Assembly: GCA_965250285.1 (NCBI GenBank)
Contig: OZ252299.1
Location: forward strand, 4,384,001-4,448,000
Length of the DNA stretch: 64,000 bases
Reading direction: 5' to 3'
Origin: Myxococcota bacterium
GTDB taxonomy: Bacteria; Myxococcota_A; UBA9160; UBA4427
Shown here: in pieces, positions 20,985 through 50,250 of the stretch
How positions within the stretch are numbered: position 1 is the stretch's first letter
How the letters are laid out: the number at the start of each line of letters is the position of its first letter
The notes under the pieces: model-generated
Database searches by the model: none
The model's input: the letters and a program-made list of their open reading frames with translations, nothing else
What the model was told of the DNA's origin: nothing
Program-made: the position numbers and the translations under genes

Positions 20985-21695
20985 TCAGTCCCAGAAGTTC
21001 CACCACGACTTCTCGGCTTCGGCCTGGGCTTCGTCGGCGCGGTCGGCCGCGACGTCGATGCCCTCTTGCGCCGAGTCTTCGGCGGCGTCGGCCTGGGCGC
21101 GGGCCTGGGCTTCGGCGTCGTCGATCTCGGTACGGGCCTGGGCTTCGGCGTCGTCGATCTCGGTACGGGCCTGGTCTTCGGCGTCGTCCATCTTCGCGCG
21201 GGCCTGGGCCTCGGCGTCGTCCATCTCGGAGCGAGCCTGGGCCTCGGCGTCGTCCATCGCCGTGCGGGCCTGGGCCTCGGCGTCATCGGCCGCGGTGCGG
21301 GCCTGGGCCTCGGCGTCGTCGGCTGCGGTGCGGGCCTGGGCCTCGGCGTCGTCGGCTGCGGTGCGGGCCTGGGCCTCGGCGTCATCGGCCGCGGCGCGGG
21401 CGCTCGACTCGGCGTCGGCCGCGGCAGCGTTTGCGCTCGCCTTCGCGTCGGCGGCGGCGTCGCGCGCCGATGCCTCCATGTCGTTGGCCGCCTGAGTGGC
21501 GTCGGCCTGGGCGTCGGCCTGGGCGTCGGCGGCTGCGCTCTCGGCCGCTTGCTGGTGATCGGCCGCCTTCTGTGAGGCTGCGTCGGCGTGCGCCTTGCCC
21601 ATCGACTGGGCGGCGCCGTGCATGTCGGCGAGCGCCGAACCCGCGATGAGCAGGAATGAGGCGATGACGATGAGCGCGAGTCGGGATCGGTTCAC
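20985..21695 (-). CDS. Secreted Ala/Asp-rich 11-mer repeat protein (LEA/apolipoprotein-like)
   Basis: Signal peptide ending ALA, nine DDAE[AD]QARxxx repeats, C-terminal KSWWNFWD; GTG start after GGAGG. Confidence 0.75.
   Translation of the reverse strand: MNRSRLALIVIASFLLIAGSALADMHGAAQSMGKAHADAASQKAADHQQAAESAAADAQADAQADATQAANDMEASARDAAADAKASANAAAADAESSARAAADDAEAQARTAADDAEAQARTAADDAEAQARTAADDAEAQARTAMDDAEAQARSEMDDAEAQARAKMDDAEDQARTEIDDAEAQARTEIDDAEAQARAQADAAEDSAQEGIDVAADRADEAQAEAEKSWWNFWD
21090..21386 (-). repeat. 33-bp coding tandem repeat, about 9 copies
   Basis: gggcctgggc(c/t)tcggcgtc recurs with a 33-nt period. Confidence 0.9.
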
Positions 21696-22009
21696 TTTCT
21701 TCCTCCAGGGCCTCGTGGCCAAACCCCCACTTCGCGGGGGAGATGAAACTCGTTTCGAATCGGCCCCGAACACTACCGAAGCGCCGGGCGCGAAACGTGA
21801 CGAATCTACACTTTTCTGCGAAACCACCGGGTTTCGCGAGCTCGACATGAGCGGGCGGCCTTCTGCTCGATCACCACCGCGTAGGCCCGACGAAACCGAC
21901 TTGCCTCGCGCTGCCCAGTGGTGGGATGGTGGGATTCGAGTTGACAGCCGGCGGTCGTCGCCGCGAGGCCGCGGCGAGGCAGACGAGCTGAGGACCGAGG
22001 GAGAAGACC

Positions 22010-24134: not shown

Positions 24135-24164
24135 TTGCGAAGCCGGGGGGTTCGGGCGTACTCT
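24135..24164 (+). promoter_or_regulatory. Candidate sigma70-type promoter for the leader-ECF-tadBC operon
   Basis: TTGCGA-N18-TACTCT about 50 nt upstream of ATG 24216. Confidence 0.35.
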
Positions 24165-24215
24165 CGACCTGTCGACCTCCCGCCGCTCCGGATCAGCCGG
24201 GGCCGAGTTCCTCCC

Positions 24216-24569
24216 ATGCAATCTCCGATCCGTGCCCTGCTCGTCGCTGGTTTCGTCGCCCTCGTGGCGATCGCCGCGATCAGTGCGCCCGCGATGTCGG
24301 CGCTGCATCTGCTCGAACACGCGGCGGTCGACGCGCCGGCCGGCGGTCTCGATGGCGCGCCCGATGCACCGCTCGGCGATGCCGAGCCCGAGTCGAGTTG
24401 CGATCTCTGCACGGCGCTCGCTCATGGCCGCACAGCGATCGACGCAACGGCACCGGCCCTGTGCCTCGACGAGACGCTCGGCGAGCGTCTCGCTCCGCGC
24501 CCCGCTGATCCGCTCTGCGCCGCAGTGCCGGTCGAATCCGCATCGCCGCGCGCTCCGCCCGTCCGCTGA
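24216..24569 (+). CDS. DUF2946/CruR-like leader protein (CxxC + RAPP arrest motif)
   Basis: Hydrophobic N-terminus, LHLLEH, CDLC, C-terminal SPRAPPVR*. Confidence 0.75.
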   Translation: MQSPIRALLVAGFVALVAIAAISAPAMSALHLLEHAAVDAPAGGLDGAPDAPLGDAEPESSCDLCTALAHGRTAIDATAPALCLDETLGERLAPRPADPLCAAVPVESASPRAPPVR

Positions 24570-24669: not shown

Positions 24670-25230
24670 ATGCGAAACATCAAGCCTGCCGGAGCCCCCG
24701 CTCCGGGGCGCCGCCAGTGGCACGACACCTACGACATCTTCGAAGCGCAGATCCGACCGCTGCTGCCCACCGTGCGCGCGACCGCGCGTCGCATCCTCGG
24801 CGATGACGACGCGGCCGCCGACGCGGTGCAAGAGGCGCTGATCTCGCTGTGGCAGGCCGGCCCCGTGCCCGATCACCTGCGCCGCTGGCTGCTGCGCACC
24901 GTGGTGCACCGCAGCCTGCACGCACGCCGCACCAATCACCGCCGAGCACACTGGGAAGACAAGGGCGGCGAAGCCGTGCTTTCGTGCACGCTGTGCGATC
25001 CCGAGCGACAGCTCGAGGTGCGCGAGCTGCTCGACGTGCTCGAGGCTTCGCTCGACGGCCTTTCACCCGATCAGCGCCAGGTGATCGAGCTGCGCGACAT
25101 CGATGGGCTCGAATACCGTGAGATCGCCGCGCGGCTCGACGTGCCCGTGGGCACCGTTCGATCGCGACTCAACCGCGCGCGTGCGCGGGTGCGCGAGTCG
25201 GCGGACCGCTTGATGGCCGACATCCGATGA
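24670..25230 (+). CDS. ECF sigma-70 factor
   Basis: sigma2 AADAVQEALISLW...WLLRTV; sigma4 LSPDQRQVIELRDIDGLEYREIAARLDVPVGTVRSRLNRAR; linker CTLC. Confidence 0.92.
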   Translation: MRNIKPAGAPAPGRRQWHDTYDIFEAQIRPLLPTVRATARRILGDDDAAADAVQEALISLWQAGPVPDHLRRWLLRTVVHRSLHARRTNHRRAHWEDKGGEAVLSCTLCDPERQLEVRELLDVLEASLDGLSPDQRQVIELRDIDGLEYREIAARLDVPVGTVRSRLNRARARVRESADRLMADIR

Positions 25231-25291: not shown

Positions 25292-26161
25292 ATGACGTCG
25301 ATTGCGAGCCTCGGAGCGCTGTTGCTCGCGACGTCGACGCTGACCGGGCTCTGGCTGACCCGACGCGAGCTGATTCGGCGCCGCACGCGCGCGCGCCTCG
25401 CCGAGGCGACCGACCCGGCCGAAGAGGGCGCCCTCGCACGCACGCCCTCGGCCCGGCCCGTATCCGACCTACCTACGGTCTGGCCCAGTGCCTGCACGGC
25501 CGTCCTCACATTCGCGCTCTGCTCGATCGGCGCCGGCTGGACGACGGCCATCTCGAGCGGCATCGGCGCCGTCGCCGGCACGCTCTGCTTCGTGATGCTC
25601 GCCTCGCTGGCCCAGAGCCGAGCGCTTCAGCTCGAAGAGGGCCTGGCCGAGGTCGTATCGCTCGCGAGCTCGGCGCTGCGCGCCGGGGCGAGCCCGGTCG
25701 ATGCCCTCGAGCGCGCCGCCCGGGCCGTGCGGGGGCCGGCCAGCCCCATCCTGCTCGACCTGTCGGGGCGGGTGCGCCTCGGCGACGACGCCACGACGGC
25801 CCTCGAGGCCATGGTCGAGCGCGTGCCGCTCGAGTCGTATCGCCTCTTCGCCGTGGCCCTGTCGGTGCAGTGGCGCGCCGGCGGCAGCCTCGAGCGATCG
25901 CTGAGCGTCGTCGGCCGCGCGGTGCGCGACCGGGTCGAGCTCGAGCGCCGCATCCAGACGCAGTCTGCGCCAACGACGGCTTCGATCTTCGCCTTCGTCG
26001 CGGCGACGGCGGGCATCGCCTACCTCATGTGGCAGAACGATCCGGTCAACATGGAGTACTTCCTCGTCTCGTCGATGGGCAGCAACCTGGTCGGCGGCGC
26101 CATCTGGCTGCAGGCGATCGGGACGTTCTGGATCTGGCACATGTCGCAGGTGCGGACATGA
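25292..26161 (+). CDS. tadB: TadB-like type II secretion system F family protein
   Basis: SALRAGAS, VQWRAGGSL, TM helices; neighbours a TadC-like gene. Confidence 0.8.
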   Translation: MTSIASLGALLLATSTLTGLWLTRRELIRRRTRARLAEATDPAEEGALARTPSARPVSDLPTVWPSACTAVLTFALCSIGAGWTTAISSGIGAVAGTLCFVMLASLAQSRALQLEEGLAEVVSLASSALRAGASPVDALERAARAVRGPASPILLDLSGRVRLGDDATTALEAMVERVPLESYRLFAVALSVQWRAGGSLERSLSVVGRAVRDRVELERRIQTQSAPTTASIFAFVAATAGIAYLMWQNDPVNMEYFLVSSMGSNLVGGAIWLQAIGTFWIWHMSQVRT

Positions 26162-26236
26162 GGGCGTCGGCGCTCAGTCGAATCTTCGGGGCGCAGCCGC
26201 TTTGCCGCCCCGCCCGAAGTGGGCGGGCCTGACGCG

Positions 26237-27133
26237 ATGTCGATCCTCACACTCGTCGCGCTGATCTCGATCGCCGCCCTGCTCGCGGGAGCCGCGACGC
26301 TCTTCTCGCTCCACTGGCGCTCGCGGGCCCGCGAACGTCTCTGGCACGAAGAAGAAGAGGCGCCGCACCGCGAGACGCAGGGCTGGCTCGCACGCTGGCT
26401 CGCCCTCGCCGGATATCGGCGCCCCGAGGCGCCCGGGGTGTTCGTTGCGATCTGCCTCGCGTGCCTGGCCGGGGGCGTGGCCGTGGCGAGCCTGCTGGGC
26501 CAGAGCCCCGTGCTACTCGGCTCGGCCGCTCAGATCGCGGGCATTCCGGTCGTCGGTCTCACGCTCGCGCGCGCGGTCATGTTGCTGCCGTGGATCGCGG
26601 CGCTCTTCACGATGGCGCTGCCGGCGCTGCTCGTGCGTGCACAGCGAGATCGACGCGTCGTGGCCATCGAGCAGGATCTGCCGATGCTGCTCGAGCTGCT
26701 CGCGACCCTGGCCGAGAGCGGGCTCAGCTTCGATGCGTCGCTCGACCGCGTGATCGACTCACAGCCGACCGAGCGGCCGCTGATCACTGAGCTTCGCCTC
26801 TACGCGCTCGAGGTGCGCGCGGGTGGCGCCCGCAGCGAGAGCCTCGAACGGCTCGCAGACCGCATCGAGGTGCGGTCGGTGACGAGCGCGGTCTCGGCGC
26901 TGGTGCAGGCCGAGGAGGTTGGGTCGGGGCTGTCCGAGGTGCTGCGGCCGCTGGCCGACGACCTGCGCCTGCGGCGCCGCGAACGTGCGCTCGCGCGCGC
27001 CGAGGCGCTGCCCGAGAAGCTCGTGTTTCCCCTGGTGCTGGGCTTCCTGCCGGGGCTCATGGTGTGGACCCTGGGGCCCTCACTCTTTCAGCTGATGAAC
27101 ACCGTCGACGCGATCATGCGCGGGCCGCGCTGA
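26237..27133 (+). CDS. tadC: TadC-like type II secretion system F family protein
   Basis: IEQDLPMLLELL, ESGLSFDASL, LVQAEEVG, AEALPEKLVFPLVLGFLPG. Confidence 0.82.
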   Translation: MSILTLVALISIAALLAGAATLFSLHWRSRARERLWHEEEEAPHRETQGWLARWLALAGYRRPEAPGVFVAICLACLAGGVAVASLLGQSPVLLGSAAQIAGIPVVGLTLARAVMLLPWIAALFTMALPALLVRAQRDRRVVAIEQDLPMLLELLATLAESGLSFDASLDRVIDSQPTERPLITELRLYALEVRAGGARSESLERLADRIEVRSVTSAVSALVQAEEVGSGLSEVLRPLADDLRLRRRERALARAEALPEKLVFPLVLGFLPGLMVWTLGPSLFQLMNTVDAIMRGPR

Positions 27134-27226
27134 CGCGTTCGACGCGTCGCCACTCGAGCGACCGCGCGACGACCCGCAGCCTCGACCAAGCGTGACCCGA
27201 GCAACGGGGTCGGCCGGCGCCCTCGA

Positions 27227-28357
27227 TCAGGCGCGGCTCTTCTGCGCGCGTCGGCGACGCAGCGCGACCAGCACACCCAAGCCGCTCACGAAGAGCGCGG
27301 TGGCGCCCGGCTCCGGGGCCTCCGAGACGCCCATCGCGCCCTGCGCGTCGCACTCGGGATCTCGCTCGGCGTAGAGTCCGGCCGAGCCGAACGTGTCCCC
27401 GCGATAGTCGATCAGACCGTCGCCGTCGTTGTCGATGCCGTCGTCGCACTCGTAGGTCGTCGACTTCTCCGAGTCGTCCTCGGGGCTGTCGCAGCCCGGG
27501 TCGCCGCCGGCATAGTCGATCAAACCGTCGCGGTCGTTGTCGATGCCATCGTCGCAGAGCGAGAACACCATCTGTTCGTCGACGTACTGGCGCGCCACGT
27601 CTTCGGCGCCGACCGGGATCGACACGGTGCCCCACACCAGATGGATCGGCGATCCCTCTGCGAAGCCCGACATCGTGAGATCGACCTTCATCAGGTAGAC
27701 GCCGAGCGACGGGAGCCCGCCGCCTGCGCGGCGCAGCTCGAAGTCGACATGGTCGTGCAGGCTGCCGTTTCCGTTCGTGTCGTCGATCACGAGGCCCGGG
27801 ATCTCGCTCGTGCCGCCATCGGCGATGGCCTGGGTGCCGAGCTCGTCGAAGCGGATGATCTCGTCGAGCGGCACCGGCGTCCATTCGACGTCGTTCACGT
27901 CGAGACCGTTGAGATCGTCGTCGATCGCATCCCAGTACAGAACGTTGCGCGCCGGCCCCCCGCCCGTCGGCACCTCGGTGAGAAAGTCGACGTTCAGATC
28001 GCGGTTGCCGGGCAGGGGCGAGAGCAGCGGCTGTTCACTGCAGGGGCTCGGCACCGTCGAGAAGCCGGGATCGTCGGTCGAGTAGCTGCCGTCGAGGCGC
28101 TGGTCGAACGCGTAGACGGGGAATCGGTTGGCGACCGGAAACGTGTCGAAGTCGCGCGCGCCGACCGCGAGCTGCGAGTATTCGAGCGTCTGCGACGCGT
28201 CGAAGGTCTGCGTTGCGCAGTCCTCGCCGGTGATCATCAACCGAGCGACGAGAACGTCGCAGTGCGACCCCGTGCAGGCGGCCTGCGCGTGCGCCGAGGT
28301 CGCGGCGGTCAGAGCCATCATGGCGATGAGAAGGATGGACGAGGCGCGGACGATCAT
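27227..28357 (-). CDS. PEP-CTERM surface protein with His motifs and two CxDGIDNDxDGLIDY repeats
   Basis: Signal peptide ending AHA; SHCDVLV, DDPGF, LYWD, LHDHVDF; C-terminal APEP-TM-RRRR. Confidence 0.82.
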   Translation of the reverse strand: MIVRASSILLIAMMALTAATSAHAQAACTGSHCDVLVARLMITGEDCATQTFDASQTLEYSQLAVGARDFDTFPVANRFPVYAFDQRLDGSYSTDDPGFSTVPSPCSEQPLLSPLPGNRDLNVDFLTEVPTGGGPARNVLYWDAIDDDLNGLDVNDVEWTPVPLDEIIRFDELGTQAIADGGTSEIPGLVIDDTNGNGSLHDHVDFELRRAGGGLPSLGVYLMKVDLTMSGFAEGSPIHLVWGTVSIPVGAEDVARQYVDEQMVFSLCDDGIDNDRDGLIDYAGGDPGCDSPEDDSEKSTTYECDDGIDNDGDGLIDYRGDTFGSAGLYAERDPECDAQGAMGVSEAPEPGATALFVSGLGVLVALRRRRAQKSRA

Positions 28358-28468: not shown

Positions 28469-29317
28469 TCAGGCGTTGACTGCACCGCGGCGCCGAGCAC
28501 CCAGGCCGATCAGGCCGAGGCCCACCAGCAGCGCGGTCGTCGGCTCGGGCACGAGGGCGGCGATGCTCTCGACCGCTGCCTCGTGGGCTTCTTCATCCTC
28601 GACGCCGAAGTCGAAGACGTTGCCCCAGACGTCCGAGCTCTCGAGGCCTTCGATGTTCGTCTGACCGAAGATCGCGTAGAAGCCGATCGTCGGGTCATCC
28701 GTGCCACCGTCACCGTTCAGCAGGTAGTCGGGGTGCGTGTCGAAGAAACCGATGCCGCTCGTCGGATCGAGCTCGACGCTCGTCAGCACGCTGGTGCCGT
28801 CGAGAATGCCGCCGCTGCCACCGTTGCCGATGATGTCGAAGTACTCACCGTTCGGCACCGCGCTCCACGACACCGCGCCGGTGCCATCCCAGAAGAGGAT
28901 GCTCGCACCCGCCACCGGCGAGTTGGGCGCCAGCACGAAGTCGACGCTGTGCTCGGCGTTGCTCGGCAGAATCGTGCCGAAGGGCAGGGCCGCCTGGCCG
29001 CCATCGGGGATCGCAAAGAACCCCGGCTCGTCGGCTACACCGACGATCGGCGTGCCCATGGTCGCTTCCAGCTCCGACTCGAAGGCCATCTCGGTCGTGC
29101 CATTCGGATCACATCCGGGCTCGCCGACGCCGCTGAAGCAGTCGACGTCGATGCCACCGATCTGCACCTTGCCACCGTCCTGGAAGACCAGGACGTCGTT
29201 GTGGCCCTCTTCTTCTTCGTCGGCCCAGGCGCCCGTCGCCACCACAAGCGCCGCGCTCGTGAATGCGACCAGCGACACCAGGCTCGACGCTCGCAATCTC
29301 TTGAGAACCCTCTGCAT
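28469..29317 (-). CDS. PEP-CTERM surface protein with His motifs (paralog of 27227-28357)
   Basis: Signal peptide ending AWA; GHNDVLV, DEPGF, LFWDG, DTHPDY; C-terminal VPEPTTALLVGLGLIGLGARRR. Confidence 0.88.
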   Translation of the reverse strand: MQRVLKRLRASSLVSLVAFTSAALVVATGAWADEEEEGHNDVLVFQDGGKVQIGGIDVDCFSGVGEPGCDPNGTTEMAFESELEATMGTPIVGVADEPGFFAIPDGGQAALPFGTILPSNAEHSVDFVLAPNSPVAGASILFWDGTGAVSWSAVPNGEYFDIIGNGGSGGILDGTSVLTSVELDPTSGIGFFDTHPDYLLNGDGGTDDPTIGFYAIFGQTNIEGLESSDVWGNVFDFGVEDEEAHEAAVESIAALVPEPTTALLVGLGLIGLGARRRGAVNA

Positions 29318-29439: not shown

Positions 29440-29485
29440 CGAGGTCGTCTCCCAATGGGGGACGAGGTCGTCTCCCAATGGGGGA
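29440..29485. repeat. Perfect 2x23-bp tandem repeat with palindromic core, in a divergent promoter region
   Basis: CGAGGTCGTCTCCCAATGGGGGA x2. Confidence 0.9.
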
Positions 29486-29599
29486 TGTGCCGCACCCCCA
29501 CCCCGGGTTCCCGCCATGGCTCGACTTTCTGGGTGCCACGGTCTGCGGTCGGTTGGCTCGCGGTGCGGGGTCGGAACGTTCCCGACGGCTGTCACGCCG

Positions 29600-29629
29600 T
29601 TGCCAAACTCGACTCGGTTCGGATAGCCT
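29600..29629 (+). promoter_or_regulatory. Candidate sigma70-type promoter for the second leader-tad operon
   Basis: TTGCCA-N18-TAGCCT about 46 nt upstream of ATG 29676. Confidence 0.35.
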
Positions 29630-29675
29630 TCCTCGAATGCGCTCCCACTGGCAGGCCCCGCTGGGCACCCGTGCA

Positions 29676-29996
29676 ATGCGTCGACGCCCATCGCGTCGAG
29701 CGGTGCTCGCTTGCCTGCTCGCCCTGCTCTGCATCGCGGCCGAAGTCGCCCACGCGCTTCATGAATCGCCGTCGGGGTCGTGCACCGAAGCCGGCGGAGA
29801 TGTCGCGGTCAGCGCGCCCTGCGGCGTCTGCGAGTGGGTCGCGTCGCATCCGAGCGCCGGCGTCGTCTCACTCGACCTGCTCGCGGTCGCTCTGCCGCTC
29901 GCGGCGGCAGACCGGGTGCACCCGCCGCGCTTCGACGCGCGACCGGCCGTCGGCACTGAGCCGGCCGCACCGAGGGCCCCGCCCCACACCGCCTGA
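29676..29996 (+). CDS. Second DUF2946/CruR-like leader protein (CxxC + RAPP)
   Basis: Basic then hydrophobic N-terminus, AHALHE, CGVC, C-terminal APRAPPHTA*. Confidence 0.75.
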   Translation: MRRRPSRRAVLACLLALLCIAAEVAHALHESPSGSCTEAGGDVAVSAPCGVCEWVASHPSAGVVSLDLLAVALPLAAADRVHPPRFDARPAVGTEPAAPRAPPHTA

Positions 29997-30260
29997 GCCG
30001 GTCCTATACGACCGGCGCCGATCGTCGTGGCCCGGCCGCGATGGGTCTCGAGTGCGCGCGGCGTGCTCGGTCTCACGCTGCGCGCCACGAAGGCCTCGAG
30101 TCGCGTCTCTCTCAATTCACTTCGGCGCGACTCCCTGAAAATCCCCCCCGCCGACGCGCTTCTCACGCGTCGGATCGAATCGTCGAGCCCGCCTGAGTCG
30201 TAGGACCCGTCCCGGGTCCGGCCCGCCCGTGCATTCGAGTCGATCGAGAAGGGTGACCCC

Positions 30261-32201
30261 ATGGGTCGTCACACACTGCGCCTGTTGTGCGCGAGCCTGA
30301 TCGTCGTGGCCATCGCCGGCGTCGGCCACACACAGCCGCGCACCGCCACCCGCGACGTGCTGCTCGGCATGCACGAGCGCATCGTGCTGAGCAGCGACGT
30401 TCAGCGCATCTCAGTCGGCAGCCCGCGCGTGCTGAGCGTCGAGGTGCTGAGCAGCCGCGAGCTGCTCGCGCTCGGCCAGGCCATCGGCCGCACGAACCTG
30501 ATCGTCTGGTACGCCGACGGCCGCACCGAAGACTTCCAGTTCGCCGTCGTGCGCGACCTGTCGCTGCTGCGACAGATCCTGCGCGACATCTACCCGACGC
30601 TGCGCGCCTCGTCGGCCCCCGACCGCGACGCGATCATTCTGCGCGGGTCGGTGCCCGACATCCGCTACTCGCGACTCGCCGAGAGCGCCGCGGCCGGCTA
30701 CCTGCAGGCGGGCGTTTCGGGTCGCCGCAGCGGCGCTCAGCCCGTTCTCCCGACCGCCGAGGCGTCGGTCGCGAGCGCGGAGAGCGCCGACGGCGCGGTC
30801 GAGATCGCCGAGACCGTGATCGAGCGCGCCTCGTCGCTGCTCGGCGTCGAAGGCGGCCGGGGCCGCGCGCAGATCATCAATCTGATCCAGGTGGGCGAGC
30901 TGCCGGCGACGCTCGAAGAGCGCGTGCGGGCAGCGATTCTGCCGATCGGCGGCGCCGACGTGACCGTGCGCCGCATCGTGCGCGGTCAGATGCGCAACGA
31001 CGCCATCGACACCCTCGTGCTCGAAGGCGAGGTCGACGGGCAGGTCGAGCTCTCGCGCATCCTGATCGCGACCTCGACCGTCGTCACCGGTCGCGGCGAC
31101 CGCCAGATCGACGTGCTCGCCAACGAAGCGGGCGCCCTCAGCAACTTCGGCGGCGGCGGGGGCGGCGGCGGGGGCGGCGGAGGCGGTGGCTTCGGCGGCG
31201 GTGGAGGCGGCGGGGGCGGCAACATCGGCAGCTCGGGCCTGCGCGTGAACGCGATTCGCTCGAACATTGCCCGGGCGAAGGCGCTCTCGACCGCCGGCGG
31301 CCGGGTGCTCGCGTTCATTCACGTGCGCGATATCCCCCAGGTGCGCGTCCAGGTGCGCGTGTTCGAGGTCAACCGCACCCGGCTCAAAGACTGGCTGCCC
31401 GAGGTCAATGCCGTGAAGGTCGACCAGGGCCAGAGCGTGCAGCCGCCGCTGATCCCGCCCACACCGGGCGGCGGCGGAGGCGTTTCGCCCGACTACAACG
31501 GCACCAGCTATCAGATGGCGACGCGCATTCTTCAGGGCGCGGCCTCGAGCCAGTGGCAGGTCGTCGCCAGCGATTTCGCGATCGACATCTTCATGGCGAT
31601 CCTCGAGAGCGAGGGCGTCGCGCGCAGCCTCGCGCGTCCGACGCTCACGGTGCTCTCGGGCGAATCGGCCACGTTCAACGTCGGCGGCGCCATCCCGATC
31701 AACCGGACGCTCACGACCGCCGCCGGCAATCAGAGCTTCAGCGACGTGTTCTTTCAGGATTTCGGCATCTCGCTCGGCGTTCGGCCGCTCGTCGGCGAGG
31801 ACGACGTGATCACGATGGACGTGAACCCCGACATCTCGTTCCCCGACGCCGCCCTCACCGCGGCGCTGAACATCGGCACGAGCGACGGCAGCAGTACCGC
31901 GGCCTTCGAGACCCGCACGCTGAGCACCAGCGCGCGCGTCGCCGACGGCGAGGTGCTCGCGATCGGCGGCCTGATCCAGCAAGAGAAGTCGATCGACTCT
32001 TCGTACACGCCGGTGGCCCACCAGATCCCGGGGGTGGGGTGGTTCGGCAAGAGCATCAGCCGCGATCAGGACGAGACCGAGGTGGTGATCCTCGTGAGCC
32101 CCACGATCGTGCGCGACCCGATCAACGGTGTCGGCTTGTGGGCCTATCCCGACCCGATGGAGCTGATGCCGCCGCCGCTCGATGAACCCGAGGCTTCGTG
32201 A
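30261..32201 (+). CDS. rcpA: Tad secretin RcpA/CpaC
   Basis: N-terminal GRTNLIVW pilus-assembly domain; QVRVQVRVFEV, LARPTLTVLSGESATFNVGG, FGISLGVRP, IGGL, ETEVVILVSPTIV. Confidence 0.88.
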   Translation: MGRHTLRLLCASLIVVAIAGVGHTQPRTATRDVLLGMHERIVLSSDVQRISVGSPRVLSVEVLSSRELLALGQAIGRTNLIVWYADGRTEDFQFAVVRDLSLLRQILRDIYPTLRASSAPDRDAIILRGSVPDIRYSRLAESAAAGYLQAGVSGRRSGAQPVLPTAEASVASAESADGAVEIAETVIERASSLLGVEGGRGRAQIINLIQVGELPATLEERVRAAILPIGGADVTVRRIVRGQMRNDAIDTLVLEGEVDGQVELSRILIATSTVVTGRGDRQIDVLANEAGALSNFGGGGGGGGGGGGGGFGGGGGGGGGNIGSSGLRVNAIRSNIARAKALSTAGGRVLAFIHVRDIPQVRVQVRVFEVNRTRLKDWLPEVNAVKVDQGQSVQPPLIPPTPGGGGGVSPDYNGTSYQMATRILQGAASSQWQVVASDFAIDIFMAILESEGVARSLARPTLTVLSGESATFNVGGAIPINRTLTTAAGNQSFSDVFFQDFGISLGVRPLVGEDDVITMDVNPDISFPDAALTAALNIGTSDGSSTAAFETRTLSTSARVADGEVLAIGGLIQQEKSIDSSYTPVAHQIPGVGWFGKSISRDQDETEVVILVSPTIVRDPINGVGLWAYPDPMELMPPPLDEPEAS

Positions 32202-32392
32202 TGTACTCTCGGGAACCGAACCTCGAGGACAGGCACTGTGTGATCGGGGAGGTCCGCAGCGTCAGAGGATGCGGCAGAAAGCACACAGTCGTGGCCGATT
32301 CGTCTCAAGGAGTCGCCACGTCGCGACATGAACAACGAACGCCTCAACCGCCCAGTTCTCTGGGCGCAAGTTCATTGGTGAAGGAGTGAACC

Positions 32393-32797
32393 ATGCGAAT
32401 GCGAACCAAGCTTCAGCGGCGACGCCAGGGCGGTGCCGCTCTGGCCGAGTACGGATTGATCGTGGCCGGTGTCACGATGGTCAGCCTGGTGGCGGTGTCG
32501 GTCTTCGGCTCGAAGGTCGGCGGCCTGATCGGCACGTCGGCGACGTTGCTGCCCGGCGCGTACACCGATCAGAACGCGCCCGTGCAGGTCGGTCAGCTGA
32601 TCGAGACCCGAACGGTCGACTCGAACCAGGACGGCGTGAAGGAGATCGTCGTCGACGCATCTCGGATCGCCGACGACGGCGGCGCGCTGCCGGGCAACGA
32701 GCCCACCGTACCGCGGCTCGGTCAGTCGATGGGGTTCGACGCGCACGACACGTCGCACCTCTATCAGCTGGGTGATCAGGACAACATGTTCCACTGA
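32393..32797 (+). CDS. Flp-type pilin with extended C-terminal domain
   Basis: Basic leader, G|AALAEYGL (E+5, Y+6), hydrophobic helix; AAGGAG RBS. Confidence 0.8.
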   Translation: MRMRTKLQRRRQGGAALAEYGLIVAGVTMVSLVAVSVFGSKVGGLIGTSATLLPGAYTDQNAPVQVGQLIETRTVDSNQDGVKEIVVDASRIADDGGALPGNEPTVPRLGQSMGFDAHDTSHLYQLGDQDNMFH

Positions 32798-32856
32798 GCC
32801 GAAGGCCTGGGGGCGCAAGCCCAACTGGCCGTGGACTCGGGAAATGTTGAGGTCGA

Positions 32857-33855
32857 ATGCAGACTCCCGATTCAAAGTCGAGGCGCCGCGAACGCGGCGG
32901 CGTGCTCGTTGAGTTCAGCGTCGCCGTCATGGCGCTCTGGCTCATCGTGGCGGCGACCCTCGACTTCGGCCGCGCCTTCGCCGCATCGCATGTCCTGCAG
33001 AGCGCAGCGCGCACCGCGACGCGCGCGCTCGCTCTGCAGGAAGTGGCGTGGAATGCAGATTTCAAGACGGCGCTGGGCAGCGTCTACGACGAGCGGTACC
33101 TCGTCCAGGACGCCGACTGTCTCGAGAACGTGGCGCGTGGCAACAACCGCAGCCTCGCCGAAGAGCTCGACGCTCAGCTGCAAGAGCAGGGGCTGATCCT
33201 CAACCGGATGCTGCAGCCGCTGATGATCTTCGAGGTCGTCTCGGTCGACGGCCCGGCGCAGCGCCTGATTCGGTATCCGGGCGCGCTGCTTCGAAACGGG
33301 TTGCCGCAACGCAACGAAAACCGGCCCTGCTCGACGCGATTCACGGTTGGGGTGCCGGTCGTCGACGACACCCTGCGTGAAGTCCGATTCCACGCGGTCG
33401 TCGAGGAACTCGATCCGGGGGCGTTCGGGCTGAGCGAGGAAGACCCGCCTGAGGACAACCGCGTCCTGCCGGGCACGGTCACGATGCGACTGCACTACCC
33501 CTTCCAGGCGGTCGGCCTGTCGGCGTGGCGGATCATCGGCGGCACGAACCGGCCGGTCGAACTAGGCGAGACGGATGGCTACGCGATCGAAGACCTGGAC
33601 AAAGTTGGCGCCTCGATGATCGATGCCCTCGATGACGTGGACGCCGACGGATCGTCGCGCGCCTACGCGGTGAACGAGGCGGGCGCCACGATCCCGGTCT
33701 ACGCGGGCCGAATGGGTCTCGGCGTGCAGGGACTGCTGAACAAGCAGGTGCGACCGTTCCGGCGCGTGATCACGGCCCAGGCCATCATGCCGCGCGAAGT
33801 CGTATCGACCCCGATCCCAGAGGCGTCGAGCGGCGGTCAGGAGTCGAGCCCGTGA
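32857..33855 (+). CDS. TadE-like pseudopilin
   Basis: RRRERG|GVLVEF, LDFGRAF, SAARTATRA. Confidence 0.78.
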   Translation: MQTPDSKSRRRERGGVLVEFSVAVMALWLIVAATLDFGRAFAASHVLQSAARTATRALALQEVAWNADFKTALGSVYDERYLVQDADCLENVARGNNRSLAEELDAQLQEQGLILNRMLQPLMIFEVVSVDGPAQRLIRYPGALLRNGLPQRNENRPCSTRFTVGVPVVDDTLREVRFHAVVEELDPGAFGLSEEDPPEDNRVLPGTVTMRLHYPFQAVGLSAWRIIGGTNRPVELGETDGYAIEDLDKVGASMIDALDDVDADGSSRAYAVNEAGATIPVYAGRMGLGVQGLLNKQVRPFRRVITAQAIMPREVVSTPIPEASSGGQESSP

Positions 33856-34793
33856 GCCGGCGAAACGCAAGAAGAAGGCGTCGGCTGAACGTCTCGACCC
33901 TGCTGCTGCCGACCGTGCTGGTCGTGATGGCGGTGGGCGGTCTGGCCCTGGTGGCGTCGTCGCTCGGCTGGCTCGGCGGTTCGGACGATCGACCGCGCGG
34001 CCGACCGCCCGGCACCATCGCGGTGCCCGTCGTCGCCGTACCGATCTCGACCTATACCCGGGTGCGCCTCGAGCACCTGATCGACCCGCGCACCGGCGAT
34101 CTGCGCGCGGTGTATCTGCCCGAGAGTTCGCTGCTGCCCGAGACGATCATCGACGCGAAAGAGCTGATCGGTCGCGTCGTCGCCACCGACAAGAAGGTGG
34201 GCCAGCTCTTCGGCCAATCCGACTTCTTTCCGCCCGGCACCCGCGAAGGCATCGTCGCCGGCATTCCGCCGGGCAAGCGCGCGCTGCGCATCGACGCGCG
34301 CAAGGTCTCGGGCATCGTCGGCCTCGGCCGAGGCGATCGCTTCGATCTCGTCGCGACGCTCGACTACACGCGCACGGCCGGCAACCGGCTGCAGGTCGAA
34401 GGCGCGCCGTCGGGCGGCCTCGGCAGCCTCGGCTCGCGCATGGGCACGTCGATCGTCGTCGAAGACGGCGCGGTGGTTCAGCCGCTCGAGACGCGCGCTG
34501 TGCCCGGCCAGCAGGCCCAGCTCGTCGAAGAGATGGTGATCGCGGTGGCGCCCGACGAGGTCGAGTCGCTGACCCGGGCCCTGCACTCGGGCGCCCGCAT
34601 CGACTGCGTGCCGCGCTCGGGGCGCCCCGTCGACGTCTCGGCCGGCCCGCCCGCCGAGTCTTCACCGCGCCGCTCGGGCGGGCTCAACGTGGTCGAGACG
34701 ATCACGGGCGGGCAGCGCCGCGTGCTCGCCGTGCCCTCGGGCTCCGACTTCGGCACACCCGAAGTCGCCGACGCCGACCCGCGAGGCCGCTAG
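33852..34793 (+). CDS. CpaB/RcpC-like SAF domain protein
   Basis: TM anchor, ELIGRVV, IPPGKRALRI, GDRFDLVA. Confidence 0.8.
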   Translation: MSRRNARRRRRLNVSTLLLPTVLVVMAVGGLALVASSLGWLGGSDDRPRGRPPGTIAVPVVAVPISTYTRVRLEHLIDPRTGDLRAVYLPESSLLPETIIDAKELIGRVVATDKKVGQLFGQSDFFPPGTREGIVAGIPPGKRALRIDARKVSGIVGLGRGDRFDLVATLDYTRTAGNRLQVEGAPSGGLGSLGSRMGTSIVVEDGAVVQPLETRAVPGQQAQLVEEMVIAVAPDEVESLTRALHSGARIDCVPRSGRPVDVSAGPPAESSPRRSGGLNVVETITGGQRRVLAVPSGSDFGTPEVADADPRGR

Positions 34794-34795
34794 CG

Positions 34796-36043
34796 ATGCT
34801 GCCGCTCGTCGCCGTTCTGGCGTTCGCCCTGCTCTCGATGGGCGCCCTCGCCGTCGACCTCGGCGCGGCCGCCGCCCAGCAGAATCGACTGCAGAGCGCG
34901 GCGGAGGCCATGGCGATGGGCGCGCACCATCAGGAGCGCCGCTTACGGCTCGCGTTGTTGCGTGACGAAGACGACGTGAACGAGAACGGGAACGCCACCG
35001 CAGCGAGCATCAACTGCGACGATTTCTCGTTGACCGGATGCAGCGAAGAGATCGACCTCGCCGCAGATGCCTACGGCGAGCGCCTGGCCGACCTGATCCT
35101 CAACAGCGAGACTGTGGCCGCCGACCGAAACCCCACGGTCAACCTCGGCCCGGGTGCGGCGCTCGCGGACGTCGAGTCGATCGGGTCGGGCGCCGCCGAA
35201 GGAAGCGAGCTGGTCGGGGCGCTTCCGGAAGGCGTCGAAGACTGCGCCGATGGGTGTTGGGGCGCTCTCGTCCGACAGGCAATGCCGCTGCTCTTCGGTC
35301 AGGCGTCGATGCTCGGCTTCTCCGAAGGCGAATCGCTGCGCGACCTGCAGGCGGCCCGTGAGGACGGACAGGGGTTCGTGGGCGATGGCACGCCGGTCGC
35401 CGGTTCGCTGCGCACGCGCGGGATCCCGATCCGCGCCATCTCGGCCGTCGACGTCATGCCCGTCGTCGCCATCGGGCGGGCTCACGACGCGTCTGCCGAG
35501 GAAAGCGACCTTTTCCGCCCCATCGGACGAGCGCCCTTCACCCTCGAGTTCGAAGCGTGGGCCGACGGCACGTTCGAGCCCGGCAGCAGCCAGATTCTCA
35601 CCGTCGAGGGCCTATCGCTTCTTCCCGCCACGGCGGACGCCGACAGCGGCCAGGCCGAGGCGCCTGCGGTGGGGCGCATCATCGTGGGCGCAGACCAGGG
35701 GCTGCGGGCCGGCGAAACGATGACGACTCAACCCGGGGTTGTGGCCGAATCGCTGCCGGGCGTCGATCCCGAGTGGATGTACGTCCCGTTGACGATGCCC
35801 ACCGGCCAAGACGACGCACTTCCCATGGTCGTCGGCTTCGGACTGGTGCGGGCCCAGTCGGCCGCGGACGGTGAAACGCTCACCGTCGAGCGAAGCCCCT
35901 CCCACGTGCAGTTTGCGCTCGGCAATGCGAGCGCGTCCGCCCGCTCGCTCTCGAGGTCGAGCGACATCGGCGCCCTCCTCAGCATGCACGCGCAAGATGA
36001 CCGCATCCGATCGCAGGTGCTGCAGGCGGCGGTCCCGCGATGA
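34796..36043 (+). CDS. TadG-like protein
   Basis: GALAVDLG...LQSAAEAMAMGA Tad N-terminal signature. Confidence 0.72.
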   Translation: MLPLVAVLAFALLSMGALAVDLGAAAAQQNRLQSAAEAMAMGAHHQERRLRLALLRDEDDVNENGNATAASINCDDFSLTGCSEEIDLAADAYGERLADLILNSETVAADRNPTVNLGPGAALADVESIGSGAAEGSELVGALPEGVEDCADGCWGALVRQAMPLLFGQASMLGFSEGESLRDLQAAREDGQGFVGDGTPVAGSLRTRGIPIRAISAVDVMPVVAIGRAHDASAEESDLFRPIGRAPFTLEFEAWADGTFEPGSSQILTVEGLSLLPATADADSGQAEAPAVGRIIVGADQGLRAGETMTTQPGVVAESLPGVDPEWMYVPLTMPTGQDDALPMVVGFGLVRAQSAADGETLTVERSPSHVQFALGNASASARSLSRSSDIGALLSMHAQDDRIRSQVLQAAVPR

Positions 36044-37296
36044 CGACCGCGAACGACGCAGACGCGGCGCGCACGCTCCACGTGCTTGTCGTCGGGCCCG
36101 AGACCGAGCTCGGGGACGAGCTGCGCGAGGCGCTGCGGGCGACCACCGATACTCGGGTGTCGTTGCGCCAGAGCTTCGACTACGCCGAGGCGGGCGACGC
36201 CGTGCGTTCGCGCCAACCCGATCTCGTCTGCGTCGAACTCGGCGCCGATGCCGACGCGCTGCGCGGCTTCGTGGCGTCGGTGCGCGCGATGGCCCCCGAC
36301 CTGCCCTTCGTCGGCGTACAGGCGCGCAGCAGCGACGGCGACGCCGCGGGCCGCGACGTGCTGGTGGAGGCGCTGCGCACCGGGTTCGTGGATGTCATCG
36401 AGCGGCCCGTCTCGAGCGCCGATCTACGCCGTGTCTGGCCAAAGGTCGTGGCCGCCTCGCGCGATCTGCACGCCCAGGGCCACGTCGTCGCCTTCCACAG
36501 CACCAAGGGCGGCGTCGGCAAGTCGACGCTCTCGGTCAACGTCGCGGCCGGGCTCGCGCGCAACCGCCCCGACCGCGTGCTGCTGATCGACGCCTCGCTG
36601 CAGCTCGGCGTCTGTGCCGCGGCGCTCGACCTGTCGCCGCGCACGACGCTGGCCGATGCCGCGCGCGAGCGCGACCGTCTCGACGAGACGCTGCTGCGCG
36701 AGTTCAGCGCGCGGCACGAGTGCGGGCTGCGCGTGCTCGCATCGCCCTACAACCCGATCGATGCCGCCGACGTCGACGACGAGTCGCTCGCGCGCATCAT
36801 CGCGATCGGTCGGCGCGCGTTCGACTTCGTCATCGTCGACACGCTGCCGACCGTCGACGGCACGATGCTCACGATCCTCGACCTCGCCGACCGCATCTTC
36901 CTCGTCAATCAGGGCACCGTGCCCGACGTGATCGGCGCGGCGCGCCTGCTCGAGACACTCGACGAGCTCGGCATCGGCGAGGATCGCCGGTCGGTCGTGC
37001 TCAACCACAACCTGCCGCGCTTCACCGGCGCGCTGACCGCCGACGAGGTCGGCGACCGGCTCGGGCAGGACGTCGACTACGAGATCCCCCACGATAAGAA
37101 GGTGCTCACGGCGCTGAACCTCGGTGAGCCGCGGGTGCTGAAGGCCAACCGACGCTTCGGCTGGGGCCGCGCGATGCGCGAGCTGATCGAAGACGTCGAC
37201 GAGCTCAGCGACACCGAGCCGACCGCGGGCGCCGGGGGCAGCGAAGACGTCCGCGAGCTCGAGCCCGAGTGGAAGATCGCCGAGGTGAAGGCGTGA
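36040..37296 (+). CDS. CpaE/TadZ (receiver-like domain + MinD-like ATPase)
   Basis: STKGGVGKST, LLIDASLQLG, FDFVIVD. Confidence 0.88.
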   Translation: MTTANDADAARTLHVLVVGPETELGDELREALRATTDTRVSLRQSFDYAEAGDAVRSRQPDLVCVELGADADALRGFVASVRAMAPDLPFVGVQARSSDGDAAGRDVLVEALRTGFVDVIERPVSSADLRRVWPKVVAASRDLHAQGHVVAFHSTKGGVGKSTLSVNVAAGLARNRPDRVLLIDASLQLGVCAAALDLSPRTTLADAARERDRLDETLLREFSARHECGLRVLASPYNPIDAADVDDESLARIIAIGRRAFDFVIVDTLPTVDGTMLTILDLADRIFLVNQGTVPDVIGAARLLETLDELGIGEDRRSVVLNHNLPRFTGALTADEVGDRLGQDVDYEIPHDKKVLTALNLGEPRVLKANRRFGWGRAMRELIEDVDELSDTEPTAGAGGSEDVRELEPEWKIAEVKA

Positions 37297-38693
37297 GCGT
37301 GGCCAGCAAGCACGAAGATCTGCGTCGGCGGCTGCGCGGCACCCGAACCGACGAGATCCGCGGCTGGAAGCGCGCGCAGGCCACCACGCCGAACGAGGCC
37401 GAGCCGGCCCCCCAGAGCAACGCGCGATCGATCGATCTCAAGGGCGAGCTGCAGGCGCGCCTGCTCGACGAGATCTCGAGGCGCGGCCTGCTCGGTGCCG
37501 ACGACAGCGAGATCGTCGAGGCGGTCAAGGATTTCGTCGAGCCGATCCTCGAAGAAGAAGATCTGCCGCTCAACGCGGCCGAGCGCGGCCGCCTCGTCGA
37601 CGAGCTGATCGAAGAGACGCTCGGGGTGGGGCCTCTGGCGCCGCTCATGGCCGACCCGGCCGTGACCGACGTGCTGGTCAACGGGCCCCACGACGTCTAC
37701 ATCGAGCGCTTCGGGCGCATCGAAGAGACCTCGGTCGGGTTTCGGGACGAGGCGCATCTCCTGCGCGTGATCGAACGCATCGCGGCCCGCGTCGGTCGCC
37801 GCATCGACGCGGCGTCACCCATGGCCGACCTGCGCCTGCCCGACGGCAGCCGCGTCAACGCGACGATCCCGCCAGCCACGCCCGACGGGCCGACGCTCTC
37901 GATTCGCCGCTTCGGGCGCCGCCGCCTGCGCGCGCGCGAGCTGCAGAAGCTCGGGTCGTTCTCGGAGACGATCGGGGCGTTCCTGTCGACGGCGGTGCGC
38001 TACCGGTCGAACGTCTTGATTTCGGGCGGCACGGGCGCGGGCAAGTCGACGCTGCTCGGTGCACTCGCCGAGTCGATCCCCGCCAGCGAACGCGTCGTGA
38101 CGATCGAGGACACCCTCGAGCTGATCCTCGACCAGAAGAATCTCGTGCGCCTCGAGGCCCGACCCGCGAACATCGAGGGGCGCGGTCTGATCACGGCGCG
38201 AGACCTGGTCGTGAACAGTCTGCGCATGCGCCCCGATCGCGTCATCGTGGGCGAAGTGCGCGGGGGTGAAGCGCTCGACATGCTCCAGGCCATGAACACG
38301 GGCCACGACGGCAGCCTCAGCACGGTGCACGCCAACTCGCCCCGCGATGCGCTCTCGCGCGTCGAGACGATGGTGCTGATGGCGGGCGTCGATCTGCCGT
38401 CGCGCGCGATCCGCGAGCAGATCGTGTCGGCGCTCGATCTGGTGGTGCACGTCGAGCGCTACGAAGACGGCGTGCGGCGCATCTCGAGCGTCGCCGAGCT
38501 GACGGGGCTCGAGGGCGAGACGGTGCTGATGCAGGAGATCTTCCGCTTCGAGCGCCGCGGACTCGAGCCCGGCCGCGTCGTCGGTGAGTACGTCGCGACC
38601 GGCATCGCCCCGCGCTGCGTGCAGGACTTCCGGGCGCGGGGGGCCGACATTCCCACCGCCTGGTTCCAGCCCACCGGGACGCGGCCTCGATGA
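37293..38693 (+). CDS. tadA: CpaF/TadA pilus assembly ATPase
   Basis: GGTGAGKST, TIEDTLEL, LRMRPDRVIVGEVRG, AMNTGHDGSLSTVHAN. Confidence 0.95.
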   Translation: MSVASKHEDLRRRLRGTRTDEIRGWKRAQATTPNEAEPAPQSNARSIDLKGELQARLLDEISRRGLLGADDSEIVEAVKDFVEPILEEEDLPLNAAERGRLVDELIEETLGVGPLAPLMADPAVTDVLVNGPHDVYIERFGRIEETSVGFRDEAHLLRVIERIAARVGRRIDAASPMADLRLPDGSRVNATIPPATPDGPTLSIRRFGRRRLRARELQKLGSFSETIGAFLSTAVRYRSNVLISGGTGAGKSTLLGALAESIPASERVVTIEDTLELILDQKNLVRLEARPANIEGRGLITARDLVVNSLRMRPDRVIVGEVRGGEALDMLQAMNTGHDGSLSTVHANSPRDALSRVETMVLMAGVDLPSRAIREQIVSALDLVVHVERYEDGVRRISSVAELTGLEGETVLMQEIFRFERRGLEPGRVVGEYVATGIAPRCVQDFRARGADIPTAWFQPTGTRPR

Positions 38694-39412
38694 AACGCCG
38701 CCAGCTCTTTCACTCGATCGCGGCGCTGGGCGTCGCGTTCGTCGCTGTGTTCGCCTCTGCGTGCGCCACCGACGATCCGCTCGGCCCCGGCTTGAAGGAC
38801 CCGACGGTTCGCCTCGACGACCTCTTGAACGAGTGGTGGGCGCCGCGCGAAGAGGGCGGCACCTGTGCGTCGGGCGGAGGCAAGTACCCGTACGTCGACT
38901 GTGGCCGCGTGCAGGCCGAGATCGAGCGACTGGTGCTCGAGTTTCCGAACCACCCCGACGTGTTGCTCGCGAACGCGGTGATCGCCTTCGAGACACGTCA
39001 GCCCGAGAAGGCGCTCGACTATCTCGACTCACTCATGGAGCTCGAACACATCGAGCCGGGCGTCACGGTGCTGCGGAGCCGCATCGCGATCGACCAGGGC
39101 AACCTGCCGTACGCACGGCGCCTGCTCGAGGCTCAGGCGCACATGGCGCCCGATGCACCGGACATCCGAGAGGCGCTCGCGGCGGTGCACTATCTCTCAG
39201 GCGAATATGATGCGTCGCATCGCGAGCTGATCATCGCCGAGCGGCTCGGCGCACCGGCCTGGCGCATCGCCTTCAACCGCGGCCTGATCGAAGAGGCTCA
39301 GGAGAACTTCGGCGCGGCGATGGAGCAGTACCGCCTGGCTCTCGACGAGAACCCCGAGTACGAGCCCGCGCGCTCGAGACTGCGAGGCCTCGAGAGCACG
39401 CGTGGTCTTTGA
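38690..39412 (+). CDS. TPR lipoprotein (TadD/pilotin-like)
   Basis: Lipobox ASAC, TPR-like helices, last gene of the tad operon. Confidence 0.72.
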   Translation: MKRRQLFHSIAALGVAFVAVFASACATDDPLGPGLKDPTVRLDDLLNEWWAPREEGGTCASGGGKYPYVDCGRVQAEIERLVLEFPNHPDVLLANAVIAFETRQPEKALDYLDSLMELEHIEPGVTVLRSRIAIDQGNLPYARRLLEAQAHMAPDAPDIREALAAVHYLSGEYDASHRELIIAERLGAPAWRIAFNRGLIEEAQENFGAAMEQYRLALDENPEYEPARSRLRGLESTRGL

Positions 39413-39792: not shown

Positions 39793-40062
39793 GAGCGGGT
39801 CTCCTCGATCGAATTCCGGGGACGCAGTGACCAGTGTAGCGTCGTCTCCGGCATCGACGCGCCCCGATCCACCGCGTACGACTCGTTCTCGACCGAACGC
39901 GACCGTGTGTTGAGTGGGGCCCGACACGCTCAGGCGAGCCTCGGCCGCCCGTGGCGTTGAAACGCACACACCCTAGTATCTGAATACGCGTTCGGTCCCA
40001 TCGACCGCCGCGCGACCGAGTGCCGGGACGCCGGTCGCCCTGCCCCTTCGAGGAGAGGTCGC

Positions 40063-50126: not shown

Positions 50127-50250
50127 TGCCCCCGCTCTCGAGAAGCCGCTCCAAAGAAATGACAGCCTACCCGACGCTCCGCGAGAGGCGCTCGGGCCGA
50201 ATCGAGCGGTGGAGACCGCCGGTGCCCGGCACCGCGTTCGCAGACTGACT

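Follow-up and report, generated by a model that had tools for sequence, protein, structure and literature searches.

Why should a small open reading frame with the layout of a metal-sensing ribosome-arrest peptide stand directly ahead of the secretin gene of a Tad (Flp) pilus system, and to what signal would it respond? To our knowledge, the metal-sensing arrest leaders known so far each control a single copper operon. The locus lies in a 64,000-nucleotide stretch of a Myxococcota genome (the window, to whose positions the coordinates below refer), and an earlier note on this DNA had described two such leaders: leader 2, ahead of the secretin gene rcpA, and leader 1, some 5 kb upstream. In the reading developed here, which we consider fairly likely, default arrest at both leaders would keep rcpA and an ECF sigma factor on during zinc limitation, zinc would release the arrest, and the sigma factor would extend this control to a regulon with two gates.

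Anatomy and family of the leaders

The two leaders and the region between leader 2 and rcpA comprise the following features.

24135-24569 (+): leader 1 with its promoter; ORF 24216-24569, CDLC-46-RAPP; PF11162 match at E 0.0087, under the cut-off
29600-29629 (+): sigma70-like promoter of leader 2, TTGCCA-N18-TAGCCT (pattern match; a relaxed form stands before other leaders)
29637-29996 (+): leader 2, a DUF2946/CruR-like RAPP arrest ORF, probably of 119 aa (leader HMM E 0.0016)
29679-29762 (+): basic N-region, hydrophobic helix, putative AHA signal cleavage site (judged by eye), and His39 and His42 of leader 2
29820-29831 (+): CGVC of leader 2 (Cys62/Cys65), a putative metal site together with His
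29973-29984 (+): RAPP arrest motif of leader 2, 3 residues ahead of the stop
29997-30260 (+): intergenic region of 264 nt, with a C-rich patch at about 30100-30200 and hairpins at 30098-30133 and 30151-30173 that have no U tails
30261-32201 (+): rcpA/CpaC secretin gene, directly behind leader 2 (PF00263 and PF13629)

The open reading frame originally drawn for leader 2, from ATG 29676 to TGA 29996 (106 aa), agrees in coordinates and translation with the window and encodes, in order, RRR, a hydrophobic segment, AHALHE, CGVC, 47 residues, RAPP, HTA and the stop codon, 264 nt before rcpA. Both the CxxC and His42 are invariant in an alignment of 15 leaders, and a predicted model of leader 2 contains a helix at residues 20-42 (low confidence, pTM 0.33). 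The start codon is a different matter: an in-frame ATG lies at 29637, 7 nt past the -10 hexamer TAGCCT. Starts 5-9 nt past a TAnnnT are found in 10 of 34 leaders, compared with 75 of 15,215 start codons (0.5%) in the same loci, and they include four of the six rcpA-type leaders, each of these starting 6-7 nt past the hexamer and being 118-119 aa long. Because such starts are enriched among leaders over this background, leader 2 probably begins at 29637 rather than 29676 and would be a 119-residue peptide made from a leaderless mRNA.

The earlier note had also drawn attention to a promoter-like element, TTGC(G/C)A-N18-TAxxCT, at a similar distance ahead of both leaders. The pattern indeed has just two matches in the window, at 24135-24164 (TTGCGA-N18-TACTCT) and 29600-29629. 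As a dedicated shared element it was rejected, since among 34 leaders the exact form is found only at these two; a relaxed form precedes 13 of the 34, compared with 5% in shuffles, so the element is better described as a generic sigma70-type promoter. A consensus promoter and terminator scan returned no promoter and no plus-strand terminator. The similar promoter-to-ORF distances (46 and 51 nt) are likely a coincidence, because leader 2 probably starts at 29637.

The two near-identical CxxC-to-RAPP spacings, 46 residues in leader 1 and 47 in leader 2, were confirmed. The leaders had been described as sharing little outside these motifs, and their similarity is weak, yet it runs over their full length (31% identity over 121 columns, E 2e-4). 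In the 6.2-Mb genome, a regular-expression scan for a hydrophobic segment, CxxC, 38-52 residues, a RAPP-like core and a stop codon gave four matches, of which two read as leaders (leaders 1 and 2) and two as noise. In addition, an HMM trained on 27 leaders of other genomes, with this genome excluded, was run over 47,612 ORF ends and ranked leader 1 first (E 6.6e-10) and leader 2 second, the third-ranked match being noise. Leaders 1 and 2 are the only convincing leaders of their type in this genome.

Across all loci read, 41 distinct leaders remained after filtering, two truncated copies of one leader (spacing 48) having been dropped as they had no hydrophobic segment. Their CxxC-to-RAPP spacing is 43 in one leader, 44 in four, 45 in five, 46 in 12, 47 in 18 and 48 in one, so that 35 of the 41 fall at 45-47, and wider spacing windows (25-80 and 30-70) over related loci returned no leader beyond 43-48. 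The arrest core is RAPP in 37, RGPP in three and RSPP in one, followed by a tail of 1-8 aa, and all 41 have at least two His ahead of the CxxC. The alignment of homologs that had been proposed as a check thus reveals a retained CxxC, a retained RAPP-type core and a constrained spacing. The constraint holds here, but it is not new: over 2000 DUF2946 proteins were reported to keep a 45-residue spacing to within 1-2 residues, and regulation to break when five residues (+5) were inserted (PMC9426467).

Leader 2 shows the traits of the DUF2946/CruR family, namely a basic and hydrophobic N-terminal helix, CxxC and RAPP close to the stop at a spacing of 47, and ESM Atlas features place it with a DUF2946 cluster (0.96). 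Pfam and NCBIfam searches with leader 2 gave no useful match, and PF11162 had no match at E<=1 to leader 2 or to the five other rcpA-type leaders; ECF-type leaders match it weakly, one of them above the cut-off (26.2 against 23.7). Because the PF11162 gathering score is not reached, leader 2 is classed here, on sequence traits, as DUF2946-like and not as a Pfam member. In Bordetella pertussis, CruR (Bp2923, DUF2946/PF11162) keeps its operon transcribed by arrest, and copper at the CxxC releases the ribosome so that Rho terminates transcription in the gap that follows (PMC9426467). CruR arrests at RAPP in vitro, and RAPP arrest is described as strong and not relieved by EF-P (PMC12992588). Conservation and this family precedent both back the view of leader 2 as an arrest peptide. 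Like CruR, it has an export signal and a CxxC followed after 45-47 residues by RAPP three residues before the stop. It is also the first gene of its operon, with its own promoter, a divergent neighbour, a long gap to the next gene and Rho encoded in the genome, and arrest is predicted to mean on and metal off. Unlike CruR, whose target is a TonB receptor, the leaders here precede a Tad secretin and an ECF sigma factor, carry an invariant His before the CxxC and sit in a zinc-type context; leader 2 also differs in having no PF11162 match and in its probably leaderless mRNA.

The spacing had further been taken to place the CxxC outside the membrane during arrest. This is plausible as a model, given that CutF of Rhodobacter capsulatus is a periplasmic sensor that depends on its signal peptide, but CruR does not need the signal (PMC9973294; PMC9426467).

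Gene order of leader, sigma factor and secretin

Leader 1 stands before an ECF sigma gene, tadB and tadC, and the Tad genes of the window are distributed around both leaders.

24670-25230 (+): ECF sigma factor with HRSLH...CxxC in the linker between regions 2 and 4 (linker CxxC in related orthologs)
25292-28357 (+): tadB and tadC, together with another exported protein that carries His and a PEP-type C-terminus
28469-29317 (-): PEP-CTERM surface protein, predicted to fold as a beta-sandwich, in which HxD, ExE and His are conserved
32393-39412 (+): flp pilin, tadE, cpaB, tadG, tadZ/cpaE, tadA and a tadD-like TPR lipoprotein
39445-39969 (-): small His-rich protein in which HxH and HxHGPxC repeats are numerous; no Pfam match; homologs near the module in three relatives (L106, L110 and L212)

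The Tad/Flp set in the window is complete for flp, rcpA, cpaB, tadZ, tadA, tadB, tadC, tadD, tadE and tadG; no prepilin peptidase was identified at the window locus, and one is present at four related loci (L040, L043, L109 and L110). When 225 genomes of the class were searched, 26 carried the rcpA type of the window, three of which were left out of the gene-order count as their locus is cut by contig ends. In all 23 assessable genomes rcpA lies behind a leader, directly in six (five with a spacing of 47, one with 48) and in 17 by way of the sigma gene, in the order leader-ECF-rcpA. Conversely, of the 26 genomes with the ECF gene, 25 are assessable, and in 24 of these a leader precedes it; the exception (G100) has an ECF site before the ECF gene and a divergent leader, so that the gene is not behind the leader. 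Two genomes (G205 and G213) have leader-ECF with ZigA next door and no such rcpA found. Because of these two, the leader-ECF pair appears to be the core of the module and Tad a member of it.

The exceptions on the side of rcpA are informative as well. One locus, seen twice (L078/L079), has rcpA with an ECF-type promoter in place of a leader, and a distant sister Tad locus (L081) has neither leader nor ECF gene; at the latter, minor pilins and a LytTR-like gene precede rcpA (L081:3100-6156). In a quick tree of rcpA, the genes directly behind a leader, six in all, group in a single clade (SH-aLRT 90) whose sister (L072) has the order ECF-rcpA. Since this sister is of the ECF-rcpA type, the ancestral order was probably leader-ECF-rcpA, and the two-leader layout probably arose once, when the operon was divided in one lineage and both parts retained a leader.

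Exchange between the two kinds of control recurs outside the pilus genes. In addition to rcpA, which is behind a leader in the window genome and behind an ECF site in L078/L079, an ArsP-SPFH-ZnuA operon follows a leader in two genomes (G199 and G005) and an ECF site in a third (G027), and G005 and G100 have a leader ahead of a DUF3299/ABC operon, the related ABC operon of G027 being headed by an ECF site. Because the same operons use a leader in one genome and an ECF site in another, gene order indicates that leader and ECF control report the same signal.

These arrangements bear on the possibility that the leader monitors secretion or the envelope, as a SecM/ApdP-like peptide or a CxxC redox sensor that ties secretin synthesis to export without any role for metal. 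RAPP peptides with N-terminal signals do track protein localization (PMC12992588; PMC10987492), and rcpA encodes an exported outer-membrane protein. On the other hand, the same leader type heads the sigma gene and metal-uptake operons, also where no such rcpA was found, and its His and CxxC are invariant at fixed spacing; the genes behind the leaders are rcpA, ECF or metal-uptake genes and not sec/yidC, as for SecM, ApdA and ApdP. We regard such a monitor as the least probable of the alternatives considered here.

The sigma factor itself carries a candidate metal site. Its linker motif HRSLH...CxxC is kept in 27 of 27 orthologs of related loci, and among the 150 best 50%-cluster representatives of its homologs an HRSLH-like motif is found in 61 and the linker CxxC in 39. 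The protein, for which no plasmid match was found, possibly belongs to an undescribed metal-binding ECF group, and the linker CxxC may serve as a second metal check. Like CorE/CorE2 (ECF44) of Myxococcus xanthus, as described in the available text of PMC6851896, it has a Cys motif between regions 2 and 4 and no adjacent anti-sigma gene was seen. In contrast to CorE/CorE2, whose motif is CxC, it has CxxC after HRSLH and no C-terminal Cys-rich domain, and it is predicted to act in limitation instead of excess. Because two distant ECF homologs carry a leader (signal, His, CxxC, 44 or 46 residues, RGPP) fused in frame at the N-terminus, the pairing of leader and ECF seems to extend to more distant relatives. 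As a separate observation, two database proteins (P0155 and P0293) have this ECF fused in frame to an Flp pilin or to the secretin and are either true fusions or gene-call artefacts.

The candidate regulon and its probable metal

Many ECF promoters have a GGAAC box at -35. An element of this kind, GGAACY-N14-GGCAC, is conserved upstream of the divergent PEP-CTERM genes, and we infer that it is read by the leader-linked ECF sigma factor. The window holds four such sites, compared with 0.31 expected, before the PEP-CTERM gene, flp, a MerC gene and a CobW_C gene.

29487-29511 (-): ECF-type promoter of the divergent PEP-CTERM gene (motif; relatives)
32212-32236 (+): ECF-type promoter before flp, with a weak matrix score of 12.8 (motif; relatives)
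49185-50820 (-): ECF-type promoter (50796-50820), MerC-family gene and pyridine-nucleotide-disulphide oxidoreductase gene
50858-54260 (+): ECF-type promoter (50858-50882), CobW_C (ZigA-like fragment) gene, FAD oxidoreductase gene and methyltransferase gene

In related loci an ECF site lies within 600 nt upstream of the PEP-CTERM gene in 22 of 23 cases, a count that is partly circular as the motif was discovered there, and before flp in 18 of 37, compared with 0 of 37 control windows inside rcpA. Immediately downstream of the PEP-CTERM gene's site, a direct repeat of about 22 nt (GACGAGGTCGTCTCCCAATGGGGG-like) occupies 29442-29484. When a matrix built solely from 55 sites of relatives was applied to the genome, it gave nine matches at a score of at least 18, compared with none in a scaled shuffle; one matrix position was relaxed (GGCAC to GGCRC) for later locus scans, after the first genome-scan result. 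Two of the nine look intragenic, and the other seven precede the PEP-CTERM gene, the MerC gene, the CobW_C gene, a CobW_C-SDR-Fe-ADH-ZigA operon, a CbiM-ABC-COG0523-WD40 operon, a LolA-like gene and an MFS/spermidine synthase gene. Strict-motif counts over whole genomes separate carriers from non-carriers modestly (46 against 17 control matches in 10 carriers; 10 against 6 in five non-carriers).

Relatives add ArsP-SPFH-ZnuA, DUF3299-ABC, DUF1826, NiCoT-like and Cys-poor DksA genes, which lie downstream of the motif or of a leader, or next to the locus; for example, one such DksA (G029) has a single Cys in its finger. The ZigA of the window genome scores 632.8 against NF038288 (cut-off 600), and of 28 genomes that have the ECF gene and/or rcpA, 15 encode ZigA, compared with 0 of 197 others, a difference whose independence is overstated by kinship although the carriers span six families. 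Two further regions are recorded as such: G029:C9:84000-108000 (L164 and L165) has about ten ECF-type sites before PEP-CTERM genes, COG0523 genes and NiCoT-like, DUF1826 and Cys-poor DksA genes, and near 4473549 of G000:C1 (L163:7549-8708) a PHGG-motif His protein and a DUF3299 gene diverge from the ZigA operon, and in this genome no leader and no plus-strand ECF site was found ahead of them. A further candidate, pyrC, is near regulon genes in three genomes (G027, G117 and G026); it was left uncounted, as no ECF site or paralogy was established.

The role of a zinc-limitation switch is normally held by the repressor Zur. The predicted targets here fall in the families of known Zur regulons (COG0523/ZigA, DUF1826, DksA paralogs, ZnuA and ZrgABCDE; PMC2770081, PMC9817125): COG0523, DUF1826, C4-less DksA and COG0523 with WD40 are listed as markers (PMC2770081), DUF3299 is ZrgE, induced 76-fold by zinc deficiency (PMC9817125), and ZigA is Zur-induced (PMC11672702). 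Unlike in Zur regulons, an arrest leader and an ECF sigma factor would exert positive control, and the only Fur-family gene of the genome is nearer to solved Fur (E 4e-23) than to Zur (3e-17). Among 26 carriers, 16 have one Fur-family copy, nine have two and one has none; single copies are also common in non-carriers.

Zinc is thus proposed from gene content, and other metals have to be weighed against it. Copper acquisition by a Tad/PEP-CTERM module under a CruR-like leader is suggested by the match of CxxC and spacing to CruR (PMC9426467), by the fact that the characterized family members sense copper, and by the best ESM Atlas match of the PEP-CTERM protein, an MbnP-like cluster (0.91). The confident model of this protein (pLDDT 90; 32 homologs found) retrieved only generic beta-sandwiches in fold searches (best Z 6.9), with no clear solved relative and no MbnP. 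Pfam found no SCO, PCuAC, CopC, YcnI, MbnH or OprC-type gene among 57 selected neighbour and target proteins, ZigA, ZnuA, DUF3299, DUF1826 and Cys-poor DksA being present instead, and the genes behind the leaders (Tad secretin, ECF sigma and zinc-type genes) are not those of copper homeostasis. Copper sensing therefore appears quite unlikely. Sensing of cobalt or nickel, or of a general shortage of divalent metals, would account for the genes downstream of the ECF motif that encode a CbiM-type ECF transporter and NiCoT/HupE-like proteins, which point to Co/Ni, and has a parallel in the His-rich DUF2946-like leaders that precede HupE/UreJ genes (PMC9973294). We hold it to be unlikely, given the zinc-specific markers: a ZigA equivalog above its cut-off, ZnuA, a ZrgE homolog and Cys-poor DksA.

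If zinc is the signal, the Tad genes would belong to a zinc-limitation response. Several features fit a Tad system that serves the export or display of metal-binding surface proteins. The Flp pilin (32393-32797) has a long C-terminal extension with a His-bearing tail, kept in five of seven aligned orthologs, and in the commoner layout of relatives tadB and tadC lie behind His-bearing PEP-CTERM genes and their ECF site. In the window, two exported His-bearing proteins with PEP-type C-termini are convergent (28469-29317 on the minus strand and 27227-28357 on the plus strand). In Synechocystis, pilus genes are affected by Zur (PMC12058595). The role of Tad under metal limitation is the weakest step of the proposal, and the pilus may instead serve adhesion. 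As a side observation on the window, an exported protein on the minus strand (20985-21848) has an Ala/Asp/Glu-rich 11-residue repeat (AEAQARTAADD-like).

Proposed control at the gap and across the regulon

The earlier note had taken the 264-nt gap to rcpA as a sign of control by termination, for example by Rho, rather than by simple opening of a ribosome-binding site. Exclusion favours termination. When the footprint of a stalled ribosome was held open in silico, with start codons chosen by script, accessibility of the rcpA RBS changed by more than 0.15 in none of six loci, so that CutF-type opening of an RBS hairpin is not predicted there; the gap has no intrinsic terminator that could be found, and the genome has a Rho gene. 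Against it, no conserved rut signal was seen: the gap sequence, including its C-rich patch, is not conserved. The gap folds no more strongly than shuffles (z -1.0) and contains no TAnnnT and no ECF site. A C>G bubble lies over RAPP in 34 of 34 leaders; as a rut site it was rejected and its excess discounted, because codons explain it (C/(C+G) at fourfold sites 0.567, compared with 0.54 in window genes). Rho termination in the gap is therefore put forward from exclusion and the CruR precedent. The leader-ECF loci differ in part: with start codons chosen by script, stalling was predicted to open the ECF RBS in six of 25 and to do the opposite in one, so control may be translational at those six.

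A sign opposite to the one proposed, as in CutF, would have metal induce the stall and the genes on in metal excess. CutF sets the precedent (PMC9973294; 10.1101/2025.02.05.636593), and CorE-type Cys-bearing ECFs are metal-activated (PMC6851896). Efflux-type genes also occur in or beside the gene set, with CDF genes at four loci or genomes (L039, L074, L086 and G141) and an OEP/CzcA-type RND pump in G005, and MerC is nearby. CutF and leader 2 do share the form of a small exported Cys-bearing DUF2946-like arrest leader for which periplasmic co-translational sensing is possible, but CutF, as described in the available text, has CxxxC and PPP, stalls with Cu and opens a nearby RBS hairpin, whereas leader 2 has CxxC, RAPP, a 264-nt gap and no predicted opening for rcpA. 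RAPP, unlike the PPP of CutF, is a strong default arrest refractory to EF-P (PMC12992588), and most predicted targets are uptake and zinc-sparing genes. The opposite sign is accordingly judged very unlikely.

In the favoured two-gate reading, the ribosome on leader 2 would stall at RAPP by default and keep rcpA expressed while zinc is scarce; zinc bound at the His/CxxC site of the leader would release the stall, and Rho would then end transcription in the gap. In parallel, leader 1 would gate the ECF sigma factor, whose predicted targets are the flp operon, the genes for His-bearing PEP-CTERM proteins and a set of genes for zinc limitation (ZigA and further COG0523 proteins, MerC, Fe-ADH and CbiM-type uptake). 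Since an ECF site precedes flp but is absent from the gap ahead of rcpA, the secretin is probably the main target of leader 2, which would act in concert with leader 1. A bolder version, in which the master switch for zinc starvation is no longer Zur but a metal sensor within a nascent chain, and Tad is a zinc-scavenging surface machine that displays or exports His-bearing PEP-CTERM proteins and its His-tailed pilin, and not an adhesion pilus, seems to us rather doubtful.

The leader type and its spacing were already known; what is new is the wiring to rcpA and to a sigma-driven zinc-type regulon. The literature search returned no report of a Tad secretin, or of a zinc-limitation regulon driven by a sigma factor, under the control of an arrest leader, although supplementary tables could list such loci. 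Individual elements have parallels. In PMC12992588, ECF sigma genes of Streptomyces lividans are preceded by RAPP/RGPP leaders, and at least nine rows of its supplement list His/CxxC-RAPP leaders before genes for a 'zinc-regulated TonB-dependent receptor'; an arrest leader ahead of a sigma gene and a zinc-linked downstream gene are thus shared with that work. The Streptomyces lividans leaders differ in being four-TM proteins of another family, and the available text of that paper links them to no regulon, pilus or secretin. In Caulobacter, a DUF2946 gene heads a Zur-activated efflux operon (PMC4176598).

If the proposal is correct, a ribosome-arrest peptide would stand atop a whole regulon by acting through a sigma factor. 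The 41 natural leaders and a defined promoter motif allow tests in reporter hosts of which metal is sensed, on which side of the membrane, and why 45-47 residues separate the metal site from the arrest core. In this way, these bacteria would have a zinc-limitation response that works without Zur, and the Tad system would gain a role in metal acquisition.
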